From Candidatus Multivoradales bacterium (GTDB lineage: Bacteria; Acidobacteriota; Thermoanaerobaculia; Multivoradales; JAHEKO01), in assembly GCA_965223155.1 (NCBI GenBank), contig CBDCVR010000004.1, positions 1-10,269 of the forward strand: a DNA stretch of 10,269 nucleotides, read 5' to 3'. Below are positions 560-9,759 of the stretch, in pieces. The stretch's first letter is position 1, and each line of letters opens with the position of its first letter. The notes beneath the pieces were generated by a model. That model did not search any database. It was not told where the DNA came from and saw only the letters and a list, made by a program, of their open reading frames with translations. A program made the translations under genes and the position numbers.

Positions 560-636
560 CGGGACGTGGCGCAGTCTGGTAGCGTACCTGAATGGGGTTC
601 AGGGGGTCGCGAGTTCAAATCTCGCCGTCCCGACCA
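560..636 (+). tRNA. tRNA-Pro (anticodon GGG)
   Basis: 77-nt cloverleaf: acceptor stem CGGGACG/CGTCCCG, D arm with GG, anticodon arm CCTGA-ATGGGGT-TCAGG, T arm GCGAG-TTCAAAT-CTCGC, and encoded ACCA end. Confidence 0.97.
590..636 (+). repeat. attL core, 47-bp direct repeat (3' half of tRNA-Pro)
   Basis: GAATGGGGTTCAGGGGGTCGCGAGTTCAAATCTCGCCGTCCCGACCA is identical to 9232-9278; the flanking bases differ on both sides. Confidence 0.96.
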
Positions 637-657
637 TTTACAGCCACCCCAAACTCC

Positions 658-676
658 CAAGTACAAATCCGGTACA
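658..676 (+). repeat. putative integrase arm-type binding site, left arm
   Basis: CAAGTACAAATCCGGTACA is 17/19 identical to 9082-9100 and contains two GTACA units 11 bp apart. Confidence 0.7.
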
Positions 677-681
677 ACTTC

Positions 682-921
682 TCACCCCGAGTTTGCCGCC
701 TCCGCGGTGCTCCTGACTCTACGCTTCAACACATAGGCGCGGACGTCGGCCGGATCATAGCGAACGACGCCTCGCTTTCGGCTGCTGAGCTTGAGGAATG
801 GGGGGCCGTGGCCGGTCTGGCGCCACTCCTGGAGGGTTCGGACGCTGACGGAGAGGAGCGCGGCTACCTCGTGCTCTTTGAGGAGGGGTTGAAGGAGGTT
901 GCGGTCGAGCGTCTTCTTCAC
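682..921 (-). CDS. excisionase-like helix-turn-helix protein (HTH_17/AlpA-like recombination directionality factor), 79 aa
   Basis: LLKEHEVAALLSVSVRTLQEWRQTGHGPPFLKL...VRYDPADVRAYV is the typical Xis-like winged-HTH pattern. The gene lies next to attL and has a strong promoter upstream. Confidence 0.88.
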   Translation of the reverse strand: MKKTLDRNLLQPLLKEHEVAALLSVSVRTLQEWRQTGHGPPFLKLSSRKRGVVRYDPADVRAYVLKRRVRSTAEAANSG

Positions 922-960
922 AGCGCCTGTGGGCTCCAGTCCAGCGGGATCTTCTCGGTG

Positions 961-989
961 AGAATACTACAAGCGTAGGATATCGTCAA
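961..989 (-). promoter_or_regulatory. sigma70 promoter of the excisionase-like gene, with an operator-like palindrome CTAC-N4-GTAG (967-978) in the spacer
   Basis: The minus strand reads TTGACG-atatcctacgcttgtag (17 nt)-TATTCT, in the gap between the 768-aa gene and the HTH gene. Confidence 0.75.
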
Positions 990-1004
990 GGAGATCCGTG
1001 ATTC

Positions 1005-3311
1005 CTAGGTGTCCCAGCCAGCCTCGGTCCGTCGAGCGCCACCGAAGTGTAGAGCAGTGGTCCTCTCTGCGAGGCCCCGCGCGTCGTGGACAAACCTACA
1101 GTGGTTGGGCATCTCGTCTTTCCGGTCGTGGTAGTTCAGCACCTCGAGGTCTTCCACAGTCAAGATGATCACTCGCTCCGTGTAGGGAGCTTGCGCCAGC
1201 TTGCATCTCTCAATTTCATCCGGTGAGAACGGCGAAGTCTTGGCGAAGAGAACGAACGGGTCGACGCCGATCTGGCCGAGCCTGTCCGCTACGGTACCGA
1301 GGTTGCTGGCGTCCTGCTCGGTGATCTCCATCCCGGTCTTGCACTCTCCGATGACTACCGCATGTCTGAGGCGCCGCATCTGCCGGAGTACGACCACGAA
1401 ATCGGTTTCACAGAACGTGTCGCGCTGGCCTTGCTCGGCAAGGTTGAGGCTCGTGGAAAAGCAGATCACCTTGTCGTGGAAGTTGAGTTGAAGAGACTGG
1501 AGCACGAGCGTAACCGGGACCGATCCCTTCTGCTCATCCGGATCACTTCGGCCGAAGAGGCCGGATCGCCTGTAGAACCAGTCACGGTCCCGCAGCTGTT
1601 CGGTAACGTCGAAGCGAGTCGCACAAAAGGCGCAGGCTACCTGGCTCGCAACATCGTCCAACGAGACCCAATCCTGGAGTTCGCAGTGCGGACACTTGAG
1701 CCTCAGCCCCGCTCGCAGGACGCCGTTCCTGATCAGGTCGAGAAAGGCGTCTAGCGGCCGTAGCCGAGAACCTCCTTGGTGACGGAGGTACAGACCCTCG
1801 TACTCCGAGAAGCGCATGGATTGTGTGGCCTCATCGAAGTTCCCGATGACCTTTTCGGCTTCCCCCTTTCTGAACGAGTCGTCAGCTGCGTACTGCCGGA
1901 TCAGTTGCCTCACACCACGGATCTTGAACACCCTGCACCCCTGGAGGCCACCCATCTGCTGGATGAGTCGAGTGGCTACGCGACCCGGTTGGCTCGGCCG
2001 CGCAACGAAGCCGCAGGCGTCGAACACTCTGGCGATCACCTTCTCGTGCTCCAGTGCGGTAAGCGACAAGTGATTCGCCGTGACTCGCTCGATGACTCCG
2101 ACGGCTTCCGGTTCCGCGCGCACCCTCCTCCAGTCGAAGAACAGCTCCCTCCCGTAGTACTCGTTCAGATCCGGCACGAATGGCGGCGTCAGGGTCGAGC
2201 CGTCGCTTACGAGAGACGTACCTACTGAACCGACGGAGATCACGACGTTTTGGTGAAAGAACTCGCTATGGTCGAGGAACGGCTTGGCAGGTAGCGCAAT
2301 GGTGGCACGAGGCCCGCGGGAGCCTTCTTCGAGTGAGGCAACAGTGAAGCTGGTGTCGAAGGCCATCAAGCTAGGCTTGACGTTCAAGCCATTCCAGGTC
2401 GCCTCTGAGATGGTGCTGAAGGAGAGCCCTCCACCTAGTGTCTCGGCAATCGCATCGTAGTCGAGCTCGTTGCTTGACCAGACAGGGATTCCTGGCGGTT
2501 CGGCCGGCCTGGTTGGAGTAGCGTGGATTCTCTTGACGTACTCGTCGGTCAGGGGTCGCAGTCGGTCGGGCTGAGAAGGATCAAAGAAGATCAGGGGGTA
2601 ACCGGCCGCTCTCAGATTCCAGAAGTTGACTAGGTCCGAGAAGTCGCCGGCAGCGCCAACGAAGAGCCCCGGTCTTCGATGCCAGTCGAACACCTTCGGC
2701 CGAAGATGCCGTCGCGCAAGTACCGATGGGGTAGCTGTACCCACGAGGTCAGCCGGTACAGGGTCCGAAGGCGAGATTTGCACCCTCTCCGCTGACAACC
2801 GCTCCTCTATGAAAGCTCCATAGTCGCGATCCACTTCCTCAGGCTCCGGAAAGGCGCCGAAAGTGGCCAGGAAGACGTTCGCGAAGGAGTCCGACGGCTC
2901 CCATTCGGCGACGGTTGCACGATAGTCGGCGGGGAGCCAGTTCCGCCGTCGGTATTCGTCGGTCTTGAGGACCGCCTGGGCCATGTCCAAGAGATGCGGT
3001 TCCTTCGTCCCCGCGCTCTCGATGAAGAGGCCATCCGGATAGAAGGGCCACTTCAGAGCCGGGAAGCTATCGGCGAACTTCACCGTCTCTTCGTCGTCGC
3101 TGGCTGAGTAGAGGGCATCGCACGCGTATAGCCAGATCAATCGCGTGCCGGTGCCGTCGTCATCGAACGGGATGATCGGGTTGAAGACGCCTCCCCAAAA
3201 ACAGTGGGTGAGACGCAGCGCCAGCCCGAAATCCTCGAGGTTGCCTGCCCGGACACACAACCCCAGCCTGAGGGGCCGAAAAGTCACCGAGACGTGCAAG
3301 GTACTCATCAT
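1005..3311 (-). CDS. 768-aa uncharacterised protein with a CxxC-x16-CxxC zinc ribbon and a C-terminal PD-(D/E)xK-like nuclease motif
   Basis: Long ORF with CPHC...CAFC (1621-1694) followed by ETDFVVV...VVIGECKT (1338-1409). I do not recognise the N-terminal region. Confidence 0.8.
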   Translation of the reverse strand: MMSTLHVSVTFRPLRLGLCVRAGNLEDFGLALRLTHCFWGGVFNPIIPFDDDGTGTRLIWLYACDALYSASDDEETVKFADSFPALKWPFYPDGLFIESAGTKEPHLLDMAQAVLKTDEYRRRNWLPADYRATVAEWEPSDSFANVFLATFGAFPEPEEVDRDYGAFIEERLSAERVQISPSDPVPADLVGTATPSVLARRHLRPKVFDWHRRPGLFVGAAGDFSDLVNFWNLRAAGYPLIFFDPSQPDRLRPLTDEYVKRIHATPTRPAEPPGIPVWSSNELDYDAIAETLGGGLSFSTISEATWNGLNVKPSLMAFDTSFTVASLEEGSRGPRATIALPAKPFLDHSEFFHQNVVISVGSVGTSLVSDGSTLTPPFVPDLNEYYGRELFFDWRRVRAEPEAVGVIERVTANHLSLTALEHEKVIARVFDACGFVARPSQPGRVATRLIQQMGGLQGCRVFKIRGVRQLIRQYAADDSFRKGEAEKVIGNFDEATQSMRFSEYEGLYLRHQGGSRLRPLDAFLDLIRNGVLRAGLRLKCPHCELQDWVSLDDVASQVACAFCATRFDVTEQLRDRDWFYRRSGLFGRSDPDEQKGSVPVTLVLQSLQLNFHDKVICFSTSLNLAEQGQRDTFCETDFVVVLRQMRRLRHAVVIGECKTGMEITEQDASNLGTVADRLGQIGVDPFVLFAKTSPFSPDEIERCKLAQAPYTERVIILTVEDLEVLNYHDRKDEMPNHCRFVHDARGLAERTTALHFGGARRTEAGWDT

Positions 3312-3363
3312 GAGGTTCGCTCGCGCATCGTCTGACCAACGAGAAGGGCTCCGGCCAGCGTCG

Positions 3364-3684
3364 CTATCTCTTTCTTCGGCTAAGCGCCTGCTGCAACAGC
3401 TCCAGGTGCTCCGGATCCCGCCCTACGACTTCGTCGAGAAACCGCCGGATCTCGCCCCGAACAGCCTTCTTCTGGCTCGCTGCCGGCGTGTAGTAGTTCG
3501 TGTTCCCTTCCTTGTCGACCTTGAGCCAGCCCTTGTTGGCCATCCGGCTCATGAAGGTGAGGATCGTCCGGTAGTCCCTCTTGGGCCTATGGCGGTCCTC
3601 CTTGAGAACCTGGCGCACGGTACAGCGACCGAGGCGCCAGCAGATACGCATGAGGCCCCATTCGGAGTGGGAGAGTCGTTCCAT
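3364..3684 (-). CDS. BlaI/MecI/CopY-family transcriptional repressor, 106 aa
   Basis: LSHSEWGLMRICW...TVRQV...YRTILTFMSRMANKGWL...KEGNTNYYTP matches the penicillinase-repressor winged-helix signature (LS..E..IM..LW; Y.TV.T.L.RL..KG). Confidence 0.88.
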   Translation of the reverse strand: MERLSHSEWGLMRICWRLGRCTVRQVLKEDRHRPKRDYRTILTFMSRMANKGWLKVDKEGNTNYYTPAASQKKAVRGEIRRFLDEVVGRDPEHLELLQQALSRRKR

Positions 3685-3759
3685 CTAGGTCTTCTCGATC
3701 GAGGATTCGAGGCGATCGAAGGTCCTGCAGGTCGCAGGTTTCCGCTCGCGCGGAGATCA

Positions 3760-3779
3760 AATGTACCACCTCTGTAGGA
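3760..3779 (-). promoter_or_regulatory. putative extended -10 promoter with operator-like site upstream of the repressor gene
   Basis: The minus strand reads TCCTAC-agag-GTGG-TACATT, i.e. TGn + TACATT, with the same motif geometry as at 961-980. There is no good -35. Confidence 0.5.
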
Positions 3780-3911
3780 GAGAGGGGGATACTCTTGACG
3801 GTAGGTCGCTTGGGCGGTGCGTGGGGACGAAGCGGGGATCTCAAGCGTCCGCGATGCCACCCTCACCGGCGACCCGGACCGCCCGATCTGCGTCGGACGG
3901 GGAAGGGGCGA

Positions 3912-4146
3912 GCTCAGCCATCGGGAGCGCTCTCGATGATCTGGCTTTGAGCAGCCCGCAGGGCTGCGAAAAGCGCAAGTGGGCATGTCGTGCGCGGCCC
4001 CGCCGCGTATGACATGCCATTGCTTGCTGTGTCGCTGAACGCACATGTAGCGAGTCTCACGGACGTAGGCGACCTTGACCGAACTCTGAAGCGCTGGACT
4101 TCCGAGTGACTTCGGAGTCGTCCGGGCGGCTCGGGTGCCGCCTGGA
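3912..4146 (+). other. cluster of five hairpins in intergenic DNA (possible structured RNA or ssDNA signal)
   Basis: Inverted repeats at 3919-3938, 3951-3967, 3982-4018 (17-bp stem), 4097-4119 and 4121-4146. Confidence 0.45.
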
Positions 4147-5062: not shown

Positions 5063-5725
5063 TCAGACGGCGAGCCTACGGCCAGGGCGCGTGACCGCGA
5101 GAGCCGCATCGTCGAGCAGCTGCAAGTTGAAGTCTCCAAAGAGCTCTTTGGTCTCTCTTTTCCAGGGCTCCCAATCTAGAGACAGCACGAGTTCGCGGGC
5201 ATTCCCGCCTTTGTCGTAGGCATACCGATCGACGTCGCGTCCTGGTAGCAATCGCTGCATCGGATCGTACGCCTCGAAGAGCTCATCCTGGGTTGCATCC
5301 AGTAGAGACCACGCACCGGCGAGGAAGACCTCCAAGTACACGTGCCCGCTGCCACCATCGAATTCGCGTGTCGCTCTGAACCGTCGGATCCAGGGGATGT
5401 CAAGCGACTTGACCCAGACACTCGGAATCCCACATGCGCGGGCCATACAGCCGTAGACGAGGGCATGCTCCGCGCATCCGAAATAGCGCCCGCGGCTAAT
5501 GATCTCTGAGGCTGTACGCCATCGGTAGTCCGATTGCTGGTGCTCACTGGTGAAATCGTCGCGCAACCAACGCCAGATGTTGCCTAGGCTCGTTTCCGCC
5601 CCTGCGCCGCGAAGTCGTGACGCCGTCTCCGCAACCACGTCGCCTCCTACGAAGGACGGGTCTAGCTCCAGATAGCGCTCGGGGTGTGAGTAGTCGATCG
5701 CATCAAAGCGGGGGATGTGGCTCAT
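5063..5725 (-). CDS. transglutaminase-like (Cys-His-Asp triad) protein, about 220 aa
   Basis: Motifs GCAEHALVYGCMARACGIPS, GHVYLEVFL and WSLLDAT. Start moved to ATG 5725 (MSHIPRF) so that it does not overlap the upstream gene. Confidence 0.82.
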   Translation of the reverse strand: MSHIPRFDAIDYSHPERYLELDPSFVGGDVVAETASRLRGAGAETSLGNIWRWLRDDFTSEHQQSDYRWRTASEIISRGRYFGCAEHALVYGCMARACGIPSVWVKSLDIPWIRRFRATREFDGGSGHVYLEVFLAGAWSLLDATQDELFEAYDPMQRLLPGRDVDRYAYDKGGNARELVLSLDWEPWKRETKELFGDFNLQLLDDAALAVTRPGRRLAV

Positions 5726-5780
5726 GCTCGAGACGTTGTCCGTGCGCTCGCTGTCCAACGGACCGGGATGCTCACTGATC

Positions 5781-6317
5781 TCAGTTGACTCTTCGCAGTA
5801 CAACACCGTTTCCGTCGAGCAAATCAAGCGCCCGCCAGTTCCTAATCACGAGTATGCGCAGCAAGAACGTTGACGCCGAGTAGGTGAATCGTACGAAGAA
5901 GATCGACGCTGCAAACGCAAGTAGCCAGAGCTTGGTTGGGAACTGTAGATCGGCAAGAGCACAGATCGCAGCGACCACGCCTGCCACGATCAAGGCAGAC
6001 AGGATACCCGCCGTGCCTTTGCTCGACTCGGCTAGATAAGAAGCCCAAACCACAAGCGTAGCAACGCCCGCCGCGATGCCCCACCAGCCGAAGGCCCAGA
6101 TGCTGAGGCCCGCCGCAGCGAGGATCATGAGGTAGCCGAGAACGAAGCTCGACAGCACGATCGCCTTGTCGAGGTAGAGAGGTTCGCCGAGCTTGGCCTC
6201 CAGGGTCTTCCGAGGTACATCCGTAAAAAACTTTCGCGCGCTTGGCCGATCAACTCCAATAAGTAGCTTCCCAGCCTTCTCATCCTCGACAATCTGCTTG
6301 TGTTCTTCCGGAGTCAT
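5781..6317 (-). CDS. membrane protein of unknown function, 178 aa (about 4 TM segments after a soluble N-terminus)
   Basis: ATG at 6317 overlaps the TGA of the upstream gene (ATGA). Hydrophobic segments begin at AIVLSSFVLGYLMILAAAGLSIWAFGWWG. Confidence 0.8.
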   Translation of the reverse strand: MTPEEHKQIVEDEKAGKLLIGVDRPSARKFFTDVPRKTLEAKLGEPLYLDKAIVLSSFVLGYLMILAAAGLSIWAFGWWGIAAGVATLVVWASYLAESSKGTAGILSALIVAGVVAAICALADLQFPTKLWLLAFAASIFFVRFTYSASTFLLRILVIRNWRALDLLDGNGVVLRRVN

Positions 6318-7229: not shown

Positions 7230-7460
7230 ATGGTACTGCCAGACGTCAAGGACCGGATCATGAGAGACCTGGATCGACTCTCGCCGGAGCAACAGAAGCG
7301 CGCTGCGGAGCTCGTCGGCGGTCTGGTGTCCTCTCTGCCCCAGGGCGCCTCGGTGGATGACCTGTTGAAGGTCGCGGGGACCCTTGATGAGGAGTCCGCC
7401 CGCGAGATGATGCAGGCCATCGAAGAGGGCTGCGAGCGGGTGGACCCGGATGAGTGGTAA
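7230..7460 (+). CDS. vapB: putative antitoxin of the PIN toxin, 76 aa
   Basis: Small protein with an acidic C-terminus (AIEEGCERVDPDEW), an SD before ATG 7230, and an 11-nt overlap with the PIN gene. Confidence 0.78.
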   Translation: MVLPDVKDRIMRDLDRLSPEQQKRAAELVGGLVSSLPQGASVDDLLKVAGTLDEESAREMMQAIEEGCERVDPDEW

Positions 7461-7839
7461 GTACCTGCTAGACACCAACGTCGCGATCCGGATTCTCAAC
7501 AACGAACTCGACCTCGAAGCCCGCCACGGTGGCGGCTCCGAGGTGTTCCTGTGTTTGACGGTCGTCGGCGAACTGTACTTCGGCGCCGAGAAATCGGGCC
7601 GGCCGGAAGCAAATCGCTCCAGCATCGATAGGCTGATCGAGCTGTGTCCGGTCGTGCCGCAGAGCCTCGATACGGCACGCTTCTACGGAATGGTCAAGAA
7701 GCGCCTCCAGGAGAAGGGTCGGCCCATCCCGGAGAACGACATCTGGATCGCCGCCGTTGCGCTCCAGCACGGTTTGACGGTAGCGACCGGAGATCCACAC
7801 TTCGATCACGTCGAGGACCTGCCAATCGAGGCCTGGTAG
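7450..7839 (+). CDS. vapC: PIN-domain toxin (VapC family), 129 aa
   Basis: YLLDTNV, VVGELYFGA, IPENDIWIAAVAL and TGDPHF supply the conserved acidic PIN residues. Confidence 0.95.
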   Translation: MSGKYLLDTNVAIRILNNELDLEARHGGGSEVFLCLTVVGELYFGAEKSGRPEANRSSIDRLIELCPVVPQSLDTARFYGMVKKRLQEKGRPIPENDIWIAAVALQHGLTVATGDPHFDHVEDLPIEAW

Positions 7840-7859: not shown

Positions 7860-9059
7860 TCAGGGCGCGCCCTTTTCGGCCTGTGAGCTACCGGTCGTCA
7901 GCCCCCGGATGTGCGCGCCCATGGTCTCGGCAGCCGTCCTCTGCGCGTCATCCAGCCGAGACCGATAGACACGATCCGTGATCTGGACATCCTCGTGTCC
8001 GGCCAGATCCGAGAGGAGTTCCAGGGACACGCCGGCTGGCACGCCCTCGCTGACGAAGCTGTGGCGGAGCGAATAGGGCGTGGCGTTCTCGAGCTTCGCG
8101 ATGCGGCAGAGGGTCTTCCAGGTTCTCTTGATGTTCTTGAGTGGCTGCCCGGGCTGGGGTCCCTCCAGCACGTAGGCATCGTCATCCTGCCGCTCAAGTC
8201 GCTCGAGCACCGCTAGGGCCGGCTCGTTGAGCCAGATGACCCGCCCACGCTGACGCTTGCCGTGGCGATCACCTTTGGCTTTCGGCAGGCGAATCTGGCG
8301 GGCCTCGAGATCGACCCATTCCCACTTCATGCCGAAGACCTCGCCCGGACGGCAGCCGGTGTAGAGAAGCAGCTCGACAGCGGTCAGGGAAGCGTCCGGC
8401 AGGATTCGCTCGTATCGCGCCTGAGACAGTGCGGCGCCGAGGCGGCGATACTCGTCGGCGCTGAGATGCCTCTGGCGTGACGGCTCTGGATAGCGCTGAA
8501 TGCCGTGCGTTGGGTTGGTTCCACGATCTCGCCAGCCCCATAGCTCGGCCAGGTTGAAGGCCTTCGACAGCAGAGACAGCACCCGATTGGCGGCGAATGG
8601 CTTCTTGGCCATGCGCACGTGGAGATCGTGCAGGTCCTCCGAGGTCACCTGGTGGACCAGGCGAGTTCCGACAACGGGTAGGACGTGGAGTCTCCACATC
8701 CGCTCGTCCTCCTCGGCGCTCTTCGGTGACTTGTGAGGCACTGCGTGCCGGCGCTGGTAGTGGACTGAGAGGTCTCGGACGGTCTTGCGCGTGGTGCGAG
8801 GTCCGTTGCCTTGCAGCAGCCTTAGCAGGAGCTGCTGGGCCTTGTCCCGCGCTGCCTCGAGCGGGACCAGATCGGCCCTGCCGATGGAGTAGGGCTTGCC
8901 GCGGAAACGGACGACGTACAGCTTCCGAGTCTTGTAAACGCGGAGCCCGAAGCCGCGCAGGCTCTTGGGGCCTCGGCCCTCCATGATGTAGTAGGAGTTC
9001 TTCTTGGCGAATGGGGCCCTCTCGACGATCCTCCGAGTGAGTAGCGGAACGATTGGCAC
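7860..9059 (-). CDS. int: tyrosine recombinase/integrase with an N-terminal arm-binding domain, about 399 aa
   Basis: Catalytic motifs LYTGCRPGE (R), PKAK (K), YSLRH, LAGH and RVY (Y). The N-terminal GFGLRV...LEAARDKA pattern resembles arm-binding domains. GTG 9059 is preceded by GGAGG. Confidence 0.95.
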   Translation of the reverse strand: MPIVPLLTRRIVERAPFAKKNSYYIMEGRGPKSLRGFGLRVYKTRKLYVVRFRGKPYSIGRADLVPLEAARDKAQQLLLRLLQGNGPRTTRKTVRDLSVHYQRRHAVPHKSPKSAEEDERMWRLHVLPVVGTRLVHQVTSEDLHDLHVRMAKKPFAANRVLSLLSKAFNLAELWGWRDRGTNPTHGIQRYPEPSRQRHLSADEYRRLGAALSQARYERILPDASLTAVELLLYTGCRPGEVFGMKWEWVDLEARQIRLPKAKGDRHGKRQRGRVIWLNEPALAVLERLERQDDDAYVLEGPQPGQPLKNIKRTWKTLCRIAKLENATPYSLRHSFVSEGVPAGVSLELLSDLAGHEDVQITDRVYRSRLDDAQRTAAETMGAHIRGLTTGSSQAEKGAP

Positions 9060-9081
9060 GATGCCTCCCTTCGGTCCGGGG

Positions 9082-9100
9082 CAAGTACATTTCCGGTACA
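9082..9100 (+). repeat. putative integrase arm-type binding site, right arm
   Basis: CAAGTACATTTCCGGTACA is 17/19 identical to 658-676 and in the same orientation. Confidence 0.7.
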
Positions 9101-9231
9101 CCGCCCTCGCCGAAAAGAGGGGTAGTTCCCCGTAAACCTACCGGAGGCAACAGCGAGATAACTCGCTCTATTTCAGTAACTTAGGGTGAGTCATCGTAAC
9201 CCTTCGCAAGGCTTGCGGAAGGCCCGGATCC

Positions 9232-9278
9232 GAATGGGGTTCAGGGGGTCGCGAGTTCAAATCTCGCCGTCCCGACCA
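9232..9278 (+). repeat. attR core, 47-bp duplicate of the tRNA-Pro 3' half
   Basis: Exact match to 590-636; it lacks the tRNA 5' half. Confidence 0.96.
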
Positions 9279-9443: not shown

Positions 9444-9718
9444 AGGTGCCACCCTTTGCGCGAAAGCTAGTCAGTAGTTGACGTCTTCGAAAAGGAACCT
9501 ATTGCAGGGTAGGAGACAGACTGCGGGCACACGAGTTCGGCATCCGGGACTGCAACGGCTCCATCTTGGGCTTCGCCGAGGCTCTTGAGTCGAATGGGCA
9601 GCGAGAGCTCGTTGGCAGACCGAAACGCGAACGAGAAGGGTGCGGGAAAGGTGTCCCCCTTGTCGCGAAAGCTAATTGGTGGTTGACATTTTCAAGAGGG
9701 GTGGTACCTATTGCGGGT
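9444..9718 (+). repeat. diverged direct repeats of about 67-70 bp (9444-9510 and 9649-9718)
   Basis: 39/52 identity without gaps (shared AGGTG, CGCGAAAGCTA, GTTGAC), followed by a shared ACCTATTGC. Confidence 0.75.
9513..9590 (+). pseudogene. C-terminal remnant of a VOC (glyoxalase/bleomycin-resistance) family gene
   Basis: ETDCG, then a frame change to AHEFGIRDCNGSILGFAE. This resembles the VOC C-terminal G.REF.I.D..G..L.F motif. No start codon or N-terminal half is present. Confidence 0.55.
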
Positions 9719-9759
9719 GGGTTGACATTTTCAAGAGGGGTGGTACCTATTGCGGGTGG
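9681..9759 (+). repeat. exact 39-bp tandem duplication containing TTGACA
   Basis: GGTTGACATTTTCAAGAGGGGTGGTACCTATTGCGGGTG occurs at 9681-9719 and 9720-9758. A third copy of the 16-bp sub-unit, with one mismatch, lies at 9754-9769. Confidence 0.95.

Follow-up and report, generated by a model that had tools for sequence, protein, structure and literature searches.

We believe that a repressor of the BlaI/MecI/CopY family probably acts as the maintenance repressor of a small integrative island in a Candidatus Multivoradales bacterium (Acidobacteriota). The repressor, a 106-aa protein here called Rep, would shut off both the island's putative excisionase gene, xis, and its own operon through a shared and conserved DNA site. 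The stretch of DNA that was analysed, the window, is 10,269 nt long and is the entire contig C4 of a 4.0-Mb genome of ~66% G+C. A repeat search of the window places the island, 8.6 kb long, between two identical 47-bp repeats at a tRNA-Pro gene. Repressors of the BlaI/MecI/CopY family are regulators of beta-lactam resistance and copper export. A first-pass annotation, made from the sequence alone, had proposed that this one controls excision and a large nuclease gene together. The features on which the argument turns are these:

682-921, minus strand: xis, a 79-aa HTH_17 gene of Xis/AlpA type with a GTG start, putative excisionase (Pfam HTH_17, 2.3e-09)
961-989, minus strand: Pxis, from the promoter scan, with -35 TTGACG (989-984), a 17-nt spacer and -10 TATTCT (966-961)
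965-980: operator O-xis, TACTACAAGCGTAGGA, two mismatches to TCCTACANNTGTAGGA; it fills the spacer and overlaps the -10
1005-3311, minus strand: gene of a 768-aa cargo protein with an unassigned N-terminal region, a winged helix, a Cys4 zinc ribbon and a predicted PD-(D/E)xK nuclease domain
3364-3684, minus strand: rep, encoding the 106-aa BlaI/MecI/CopY-family repressor (Pfam Penicillinase_R, 6.8e-20)
3760-3782, minus strand: Prep with O-rep, CTCTCCTACAGAGGTGGTACATT on the minus strand; the half-site TCCTACA is perfect and the right half GGTGGTA is degenerate

Rep and its two candidate sites

The BlaI-type identity first given to the 106-aa protein is borne out by profile search. Rep scores 72.0 bits against Penicillinase_R (PF03965), where the cut-off is 22.6, over profile positions 1-90 of 115. 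Its sequence matches in the PDB are the DNA-binding domains of BlaI, CopR and MecI; those to BlaI and MecI include 1p6r, 1sd4 and 1okr, with BlaI 1p6r at E 4.4e-05. Its only Cys residues are 15 and 21, and its C-terminus reads ...LLQQALSRRKR. A homodimer model scores 0.48 against 0.11 for the best control, with an interface of residues 72-104 (the C-terminal helices), a pLDDT of 86 and at least 90% agreement of contacts between runs. This passes a mark that 20 of 30 solved homo-pairs and 1 of 23 single chains reach. To judge from the model, a dimer is the most likely active form of Rep, although similarity to BlaI and MecI, for which solved dimers exist, may explain why the mark was passed.

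The genome has three further Penicillinase_R genes. Two are 65% identical to Rep. The third is 41% identical and stands beside an M56 BlaR1-type gene at C14:1050634, forming a canonical pair; the genome's other M56 gene is at C13:730042. A phage origin of Rep was considered and rejected. No relative was found in viral contigs, and distant relatives occur in 8 of 50,697 phage records at <=31.5% identity, where the annotated ones are penicillinase or copper-operon regulators. The conserved part of rep (3482-3586) also recurs in other metagenome contigs, with ~10 differing positions and at a depth of 16-31 compared to 2-3 for the island, so more abundant relatives of Rep are present in the same samples.

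The presumed target is a good candidate for an excisionase. The xis product scores 37.8 bits against HTH_17 (cut-off 27) and matches PHROG 66, 'excisionase and transcriptional regulator', at 1.9e-10. It is a small HTH_17 protein within an element that carries a tyrosine integrase, which suggests a protein of Xis/AlpA type, and the excisionase role is putative.

Both sites exist exactly as they were first described. Plus-strand positions 961-980 read AGAATACTACAAGCGTAGGA, with TCCTACGCTTGTAGTATTCT on the minus strand, and positions 3760-3779 read AATGTACCACCTCTGTAGGA, with TCCTACAGAGGTGGTACATT on the minus strand. The minus-strand strings TCCTACgcttGTAGTATTCT (980-961) and TCCTACagagGTGGTACATT (3779-3760) each overlap a -10-like hexamer, and 968-977 (TACAAGCGTA) is indeed one mismatch from TACAnnTGTA. 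Pxis is the only sigma-70-like site reported by the scan of 600-4100. At the other site, an extended -10 (TGgTACATT) can also be read from the right half GGTGGTA. The stronger statement, that one palindrome is shared at both -10 boxes, survives in part. A TACAnnTGTA-type dyad does lie on core promoter elements of both genes, at 965-980 and 3764-3779, which would place candidate operators at Rep's own promoter and at a target promoter as is typical of the family, but O-rep is a poor match to the consensus.

It is important to realize how little can be concluded from the window itself. Searched on both strands, the 4.0-Mb genome contains the pattern TCCTAC-N4-GTRGTA exactly two times, and both occurrences are in the island. 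This count is post hoc because the pattern was derived from these two sites. By our estimate, an ungapped match of 11/16 between two regions of ~100 nt is what chance would give. Statistics internal to the window are weak, and therefore the significance of the sites must rest on motifs derived outside it.

Evidence from outside the window

The first such motif comes from the two 65%-identical paralogs in the same genome. Both have a perfect dyad, TCCTA-cacgca-TAGGA, upstream and a second TCCTACA site closer to the ATG; the paralog operator reads TCCTACACGCATAGGA. The pattern TCCTA-N6-TAGGA, taken from these paralog promoters, occurs genome-wide three times exactly and nine times with one mismatch. 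Repressor-linked promoters account for five of the 12, among them 965-980.

The second motif comes from the Rep subfamily, a set of 57 loci at 56-84% identity. Genomes of the same bacterial family contributed 14 of them and metagenomes the other 43. The recognition-helix stretch RDYRTILTFM(S/T)RM is nearly invariant across this clade, so it is reasonable to pool sites across loci. The upstream regions yield the consensus TCCTACA-NN-TGTAGGA, an extended TACAnnTGTA box. It matches the published operator of the BlaI/CopY family, given in the part of PMC7253601 consulted as TACANNTGTA and refined to RNYKACANNYGTMRNY, typically with two operators per promoter. Counted back from the aligned rep start, most loci have one site at ~62-65 nt (proximal) and another at ~120-142 nt (distal). 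Across the 57 loci, 53 sites with at most two mismatches fall in the 13.8 kb upstream of rep and one falls in the other 170 kb. That sole outside site belongs to the promoter of a xis homolog (L136), the only such homolog in the set. Such a site is found at 29 of the 52 loci that have at least 150 nt upstream, and where rep stands beside a serine recombinase it is found at 25 of 26, usually as one proximal and one distal copy.

These motifs can then be carried back to the genome of the window. Six genomic sites come within two mismatches of the 14-position consensus: four at the two paralog loci, O-xis, and C14:981369 inside an ORF. Exactly three mismatches are found at 29 sites, and O-rep (3764-3779) is among them. 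With a weight matrix built from 27 metagenome sites, O-xis (matched at 963-982) scores 16.1 bits and ranks 7 in the genome, and four of the six higher sites are the paralog operators. The matches at C14:1059603 and C14:981367 (inside ORFs) and C14:338669 (in a short inter-ORF gap) were set aside as probable chance.

Conservation upstream of homologous xis and rep genes had been named beforehand as one point on which the whole idea could fail, and the motif is conserved upstream of both. O-xis is conserved in L181, L136, L196, L197 and L198. The xis homolog of L136 (47% identity) has the promoter TTGACC-atctCTTACATATGTAG-TATTGT, and the five homologous xis promoters align as TTGAC(C/G) or TTGATT, a 17-nt spacer that holds the dyad, and TAnnnT. 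Of the 29 loci with a xis homolog drawn from 300 genomes in the order, four (L181, L196, L197, L198) have a site with at most three mismatches within 150 nt upstream, and all four are from the bacterial family in which the Rep clade occurs. Two other loci have three-mismatch sites at -566 and -225, which we take as chance. On the rep side, the 21-mer 3762-3782 is identical in the closest orthologous loci, L009 and L010 (84% and 78% protein identity), where the flanks cannot be aligned.

One of the related elements deserves separate mention. Genome G056 carries an element of ~94 kb in tRNA-Pro, bounded by the same attachment-site (att) repeats of 47-48 bp. Its xis, rep and integrase (int) products are 77%, 84% and 73% identical to those of the window, gene order and strand are those of the window, and neither of the two sites is missing; DNA homology with the window stops at 3782. 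In addition, the G056 element carries a gene for the conjugation protein TrbI and metal-efflux cargo. Because the two share the int-xis-rep backbone and both sites, the island is by this comparison a much smaller relative of an integrative conjugative element.

The link to recombination genes is not limited to tyrosine integrases. In at least 26 loci rep is divergent from a 63-aa ORF and a large serine recombinase, with two operators in the ~170-nt gap between them. Thus rep is associated with the recombination genes of two recombinase systems that are unrelated to each other. In our opinion this is the strongest support for the proposed role as an island switch. At the two closest Rep orthologs, the operon opposite rep is instead one for an ECF sigma factor and a Ser/Thr kinase. 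In the window, Rep is encoded inside the island bounded by the 47-bp repeats and its candidate sites are on Pxis and Prep, which is the arrangement to be expected of a maintenance repressor.

The mechanism we propose is as follows. A Rep dimer would bind the extended TACAnnTGTA dyad at O-xis (965-980) and at O-rep (3764-3779). On O-xis it would block RNA polymerase, keeping xis off and hence excision off. At O-rep a perfect half-site beside a degenerate half would let Rep repress its own operon more weakly, as a homeostatic control. The 768-aa cargo protein would be expressed alongside Rep in the integrated state and would rise further upon derepression. Loss of Rep activity in response to some signal would let Pxis fire, and after circularisation its transcription could cross the joined site, attP, into int, which is on the same strand.

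The cargo gene and the competing explanations

The 768-aa protein has no Pfam, PADLOC or NCBIfam family, and yet at least 298 homologs are found at ~40% identity in many phyla, all of them unnamed. Its AlphaFold2 model has a pLDDT of 89.9. Residues ~380-750 match the winged-helix plus PD-(D/E)xK modules of Cdn1, Can2, VC1899 and Card1 at Z 8.7-11.1, the best matches being Cdn1 9u49 (Z 11.1, rmsd 4.4, 210 aligned), Can2 7bdv (Z 10.3) and VC1899 1xmx (Z 10.1). The fold of the nuclease domain matches those of Can2, Card1, BspD6I and FokI at Z 6.5-11.1, and the PD-(D/E)xK motif is conserved: in a 50-sequence alignment the nuclease residues E635, D637, E656 and K658 are invariant, as are the zinc-ribbon residues C540, C543, C560 and C563. 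That the protein is a nuclease is a fair prediction from the model because residues ~380-750 align with these winged-helix/PD-(D/E)xK modules and with restriction-nuclease domains. Residues 1-380 fall in no named Atlas cluster and give middling matches only, to cell-wall-binding-type alpha/beta domains at Z 6.2-7.3. A CARF domain was not recognised in the model, where the alignments cover ~380-750 and residues 1-380 were not searched alone.

The first-pass annotation saw this gene and rep as a pair, with the nuclease in a putative defence role. PADLOC matches neither the 768-aa protein nor Rep, so the assignment to a defence system was rejected and the role is unproven. The pairing itself is not conserved as a system. 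Upstream of the homolog, no BlaI-type gene occurs at any of 80 loci, and these loci share no conserved neighbour, the largest cluster of shared neighbours covering 6 of the 80. The sole weak BlaI-type match (L088, 32% over 72 aa) is ~4.5 kb downstream. What the relatives of Rep do share is the position. Their cargo lies behind rep on the same strand after 11-98 nt, and it consists of AbiEi/AbiEii, a tyrosine recombinase, a methyltransferase, a phosphatase plus S1/P1 nuclease, an HTH_3-M78 peptidase or an AAA_21 ATPase. The position downstream of rep is, on this comparison, a variable cargo slot, and in this island it happens to be filled by the 768-aa gene. The gap between rep and that gene is 52 nt (3312-3363) and has no predicted promoter or credible terminator, so the two are probably co-transcribed. 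The scan of 600-4100 gave no credible terminator between rep, the 768-aa gene and xis.

The alternative that survives best accepts that Rep controls xis and itself but gives the 768-aa gene its own promoter, so that nuclease and excision would not be controlled together. We consider this unlikely. In its favour, the pairing recurs at none of the 80 homolog loci, and the 52-nt gap lacks a strong ribosome-binding site. Against it, this gap has no promoter-like or credible terminator-like site, and in relatives cargo trails rep closely on the same strand.

Several observations weigh against Rep as the switch of the island, and we bring them together here. O-rep is weak, scoring 7.8 bits, and 104 genome positions score at least as high. 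Its right half overlaps CTACA-N6-GTACA, which resembles the GTACA-N6-GTACA repeats at the island ends. The consensus is dominated by the serine-recombinase clade; of the 26 loci in other contexts, four have a site with at most two mismatches and seven with at most three. The nuclease-rep pairing is unique to this island. No sensor for Rep was found in the island, where there is neither an adjacent M56 protease nor a C-terminal Cys motif. The metagenome contigs of four runs contain no attL-attR joint, although the island depth was 2-3 and contigs drop rare forms, which makes the result uninformative either way. The main caveat is that genomes G065 (96% complete) and G207 (87% complete) have a two-mismatch xis promoter site and have no Penicillinase_R match or Rep homolog. 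Either the site persists there without Rep or some other factor reads it.

The last of these points leads to a second alternative, in which the conserved dyads are real but are read by a different protein, either the HTH_17 Xis/AlpA protein regulating itself or the integrase through its arm-binding domain. We find this improbable. Besides the two genomes that retain the xis promoter site without any Penicillinase_R gene, it has in its favour that the CTACA-N6-GTACA in O-rep is one base off the island-end repeats, which G056 retains and which probably serve as Int or Xis sites. But the same consensus stands upstream of rep at 25 of the 26 serine-recombinase loci, and those have neither this xis nor this integrase. 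The consensus also fits the published operator of Rep's own family, its dyad symmetry suits a dimeric winged-helix protein, and the xis promoter site is confined to the bacterial family that holds the Rep clade. The notion that the likeness of the two window sites is chance and that neither is an operator is hardly credible, since the expected 11/16 match and the post hoc pattern count would allow it but independently derived motifs pick out 965-980 in 4.0 Mb and both sites are conserved in orthologous elements.

Island anatomy, related elements and known systems

The remaining features of the island are listed here:

560-636, plus strand: tRNA-Pro, anticodon GGG, the integration target (ARAGORN; Rfam tRNA 60.8 bits)
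590-636: attL core, the 47-bp direct repeat formed by the tRNA-Pro 3' end, identical to 9232-9278 (repeat search)
661-676, plus strand: GTACA-N6-GTACA direct repeat, candidate arm-type or Xis site, ~25 nt inside attL
7450-7839, plus strand: VapC/PIN toxin gene (VapC models)
7860-9101, minus strand: int, tyrosine integrase with arm-binding domain (Pfam Phage_integrase 1.8e-19, Arm-DNA-bind_3 6.6e-09)
9085-9100, plus strand: second GTACA-N6-GTACA direct repeat, directly upstream of the likely int start
9232-9278: attR core, 47-bp repeat of the tRNA 3' end (repeat search), also found in G056

The attL/attR core (47-48 bp) is the one that bounds the 94-kb element of G056, and orthologous xis and int pairs are present in both the window and G056. 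The genes xis and int share a strand and occupy the two ends of the island, a layout that is identical in the G056 element. GTACA-N6-GTACA has two sites in the whole 4.0-Mb genome, both in the island, and equivalents are conserved in the G056 element; the repeats probably serve Int or Xis as arm-type sites. The listed integrase ORF begins at GTG 9101. Its true start is probably GTG 9059, since AAGGGAGG precedes that in-frame GTG and the alignment with the 73%-identical G056 integrase begins at residue 13.

Other parts of the window can be described briefly. A short plus-strand ORF ahead of the VapC/PIN gene (~7230-7839 in all) is the likely antitoxin, and the two would form a stabilisation module inside the island. 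Between 4164 and 6907 lie four minus-strand ORFs whose single family match is a transglutaminase-core (cysteine-protease-like) domain at 5063-5827; in the neighbourhood comparison none of the four was common to related repressor loci. Beyond the island, a 39-bp stretch is exactly duplicated in tandem (9681-9719 and 9720-9758). It contains TTGACA and GGGTGGTACCTATTGC, and an older diverged copy lies at 9444-9495. The duplication could represent a reiterated promoter or operator ahead of the ORF at 9750. An ORF at 2-388 runs off the contig start and encodes a Lys/Ala/Pro-rich protein with a repeat-containing basic C-terminus (AKKAPKKAAKK type), for which there is no Pfam match. The tRNA was the sole match in the Rfam scan of the window.

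The same genome has two more elements with a 65%-identical repressor, L005 (G000 C15:1284000-1303999) and L006 (C13:146000-165999). In both, rep faces a 63-aa ORF and a serine recombinase of 504-507 aa across two operators, and their cargo includes an HTH_3-M78 peptidase, a SAVED-domain protein and AAA_21 ATPases. At the paralog L002, rep is followed by an HTH_3-Peptidase_M78 gene of ImmA/IrrE type. Elements of another kind are found in G065 and G207, where the operator-bearing promoter heads an operon of xis and a DnaB-like helicase gene next to a RepA_C gene. In L210 (G065:C35, 6925-9829) and L212 (G169:C351) this is an operator-bearing Pxis ahead of xis and a DnaB/AAA_25 helicase gene beside RepA_C. 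Elements of this type may be repressor-less and regulated in trans.

A broader idea can be put forward only tentatively. The sensor-less BlaI/CopY-type clade might form a shared 'immunity group' for small integrative elements of both the tyrosine- and the serine-recombinase type, with cross-silencing between elements, joint release, and Rep-less elements that depend on a repressor in trans. One Rep could hold all three elements of this genome silent because their recognition helices are near-identical and their operators follow one consensus. If this is true, one signal would release excision of three elements and raise the rep-linked cargo (nuclease, AbiE, AAA_21 ATPase, M78 protease), and the Rep-less elements of G065 and G207 would depend on a co-resident repressor as a satellite depends on its helper.

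We found no report of a BlaI-family protein controlling an excision gene or a recombinase in the literature covered, subscription journals being outside that coverage. In PMC12007190, as far as the portion consulted goes, such a regulator is named only as a host gene beside a phage attachment site, and in PMC10214605 it appears solely in the reference list. What the sequences suggest is a known repressor family in a known regulatory role, with a link between the two that was previously undescribed in that literature. A sensor-less BlaI-type clade appears to have been recruited as an on/off switch of integrative elements, and its operator is legible from comparative data. The predicted regulon comprises Pxis, Prep and the serine-recombinase promoters, and the 16-bp operator can be used to find such elements in genomes. 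The variable slot behind rep carries toxin-antitoxin and nuclease genes, including a widespread, uncharacterised family of 768-aa zinc-ribbon proteins predicted to be nucleases. The work also poses the question of what inactivates a BlaI-type repressor that has no BlaR1 partner and no metal site; in the island we identified no inducer or sensor, with no M56, protease partner or metal-binding Cys motif encoded there.

Comparison with known systems makes clear what is shared and what is not. The bla and mec repressors are autoregulatory. Rep resembles BlaI and MecI in its winged-helix domain, its predicted dimer through C-terminal helices and a TACA/TGTA dyad that overlaps the promoter. It differs in having no adjacent M56 sensor-protease, and no M56 domain is encoded in the window. 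It is also shorter at 106 aa, there is no beta-lactamase or PBP gene, and it falls below the NCBIfam cut-offs for BlaI_of_BCL (38.5 vs 180), BlaI_of_MRSA (19.6 vs 250) and MecI (17.3 vs 250).

CopY/CopR and the cop box belong to the same Pfam family, but Rep scores 54.3 bits against the CopY_TcrY model (TIGR02698) and does not reach its cut-off of 121.95. Rep has no C-terminal Cys-x-Cys metal site as in CopY/TcrY and no Cys after residue 21, and its likely targets are an excision gene and its own operon rather than a copper exporter. The operators are closer, in that a TACAnnTGTA core dyad is extended to ~16 bp and distal and proximal operators lie upstream, at least as these are set out in the available part of PMC7253601.

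For the cargo, the comparison is with Can1, Can2, Card1, Cdn1 and VC1899. Residues ~380-750 of the 768-aa protein appear from the model to form the same winged-helix plus PD-(D/E)xK module. Unlike Can2 and Card1, it has an inserted Cys4 zinc ribbon and has no CRISPR or cyclase neighbour.

Parallels in logic are lambda CI, SetR of SXT and ImmR/ImmA of ICEBs1, which are element-encoded repressors with an autoregulatory site and a site on an excision or recombination promoter. Rep is a Penicillinase_R winged helix and not of CI/Xre type, and the island has neither a RecA-dependent autocleavage domain nor a linked protease. Despite these differences, Rep too is encoded within its element and has candidate sites on its own promoter and on that of the excision gene. 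Cargo co-transcribed with a repressor likewise has a precedent in the cI-rexAB genes of lambda.

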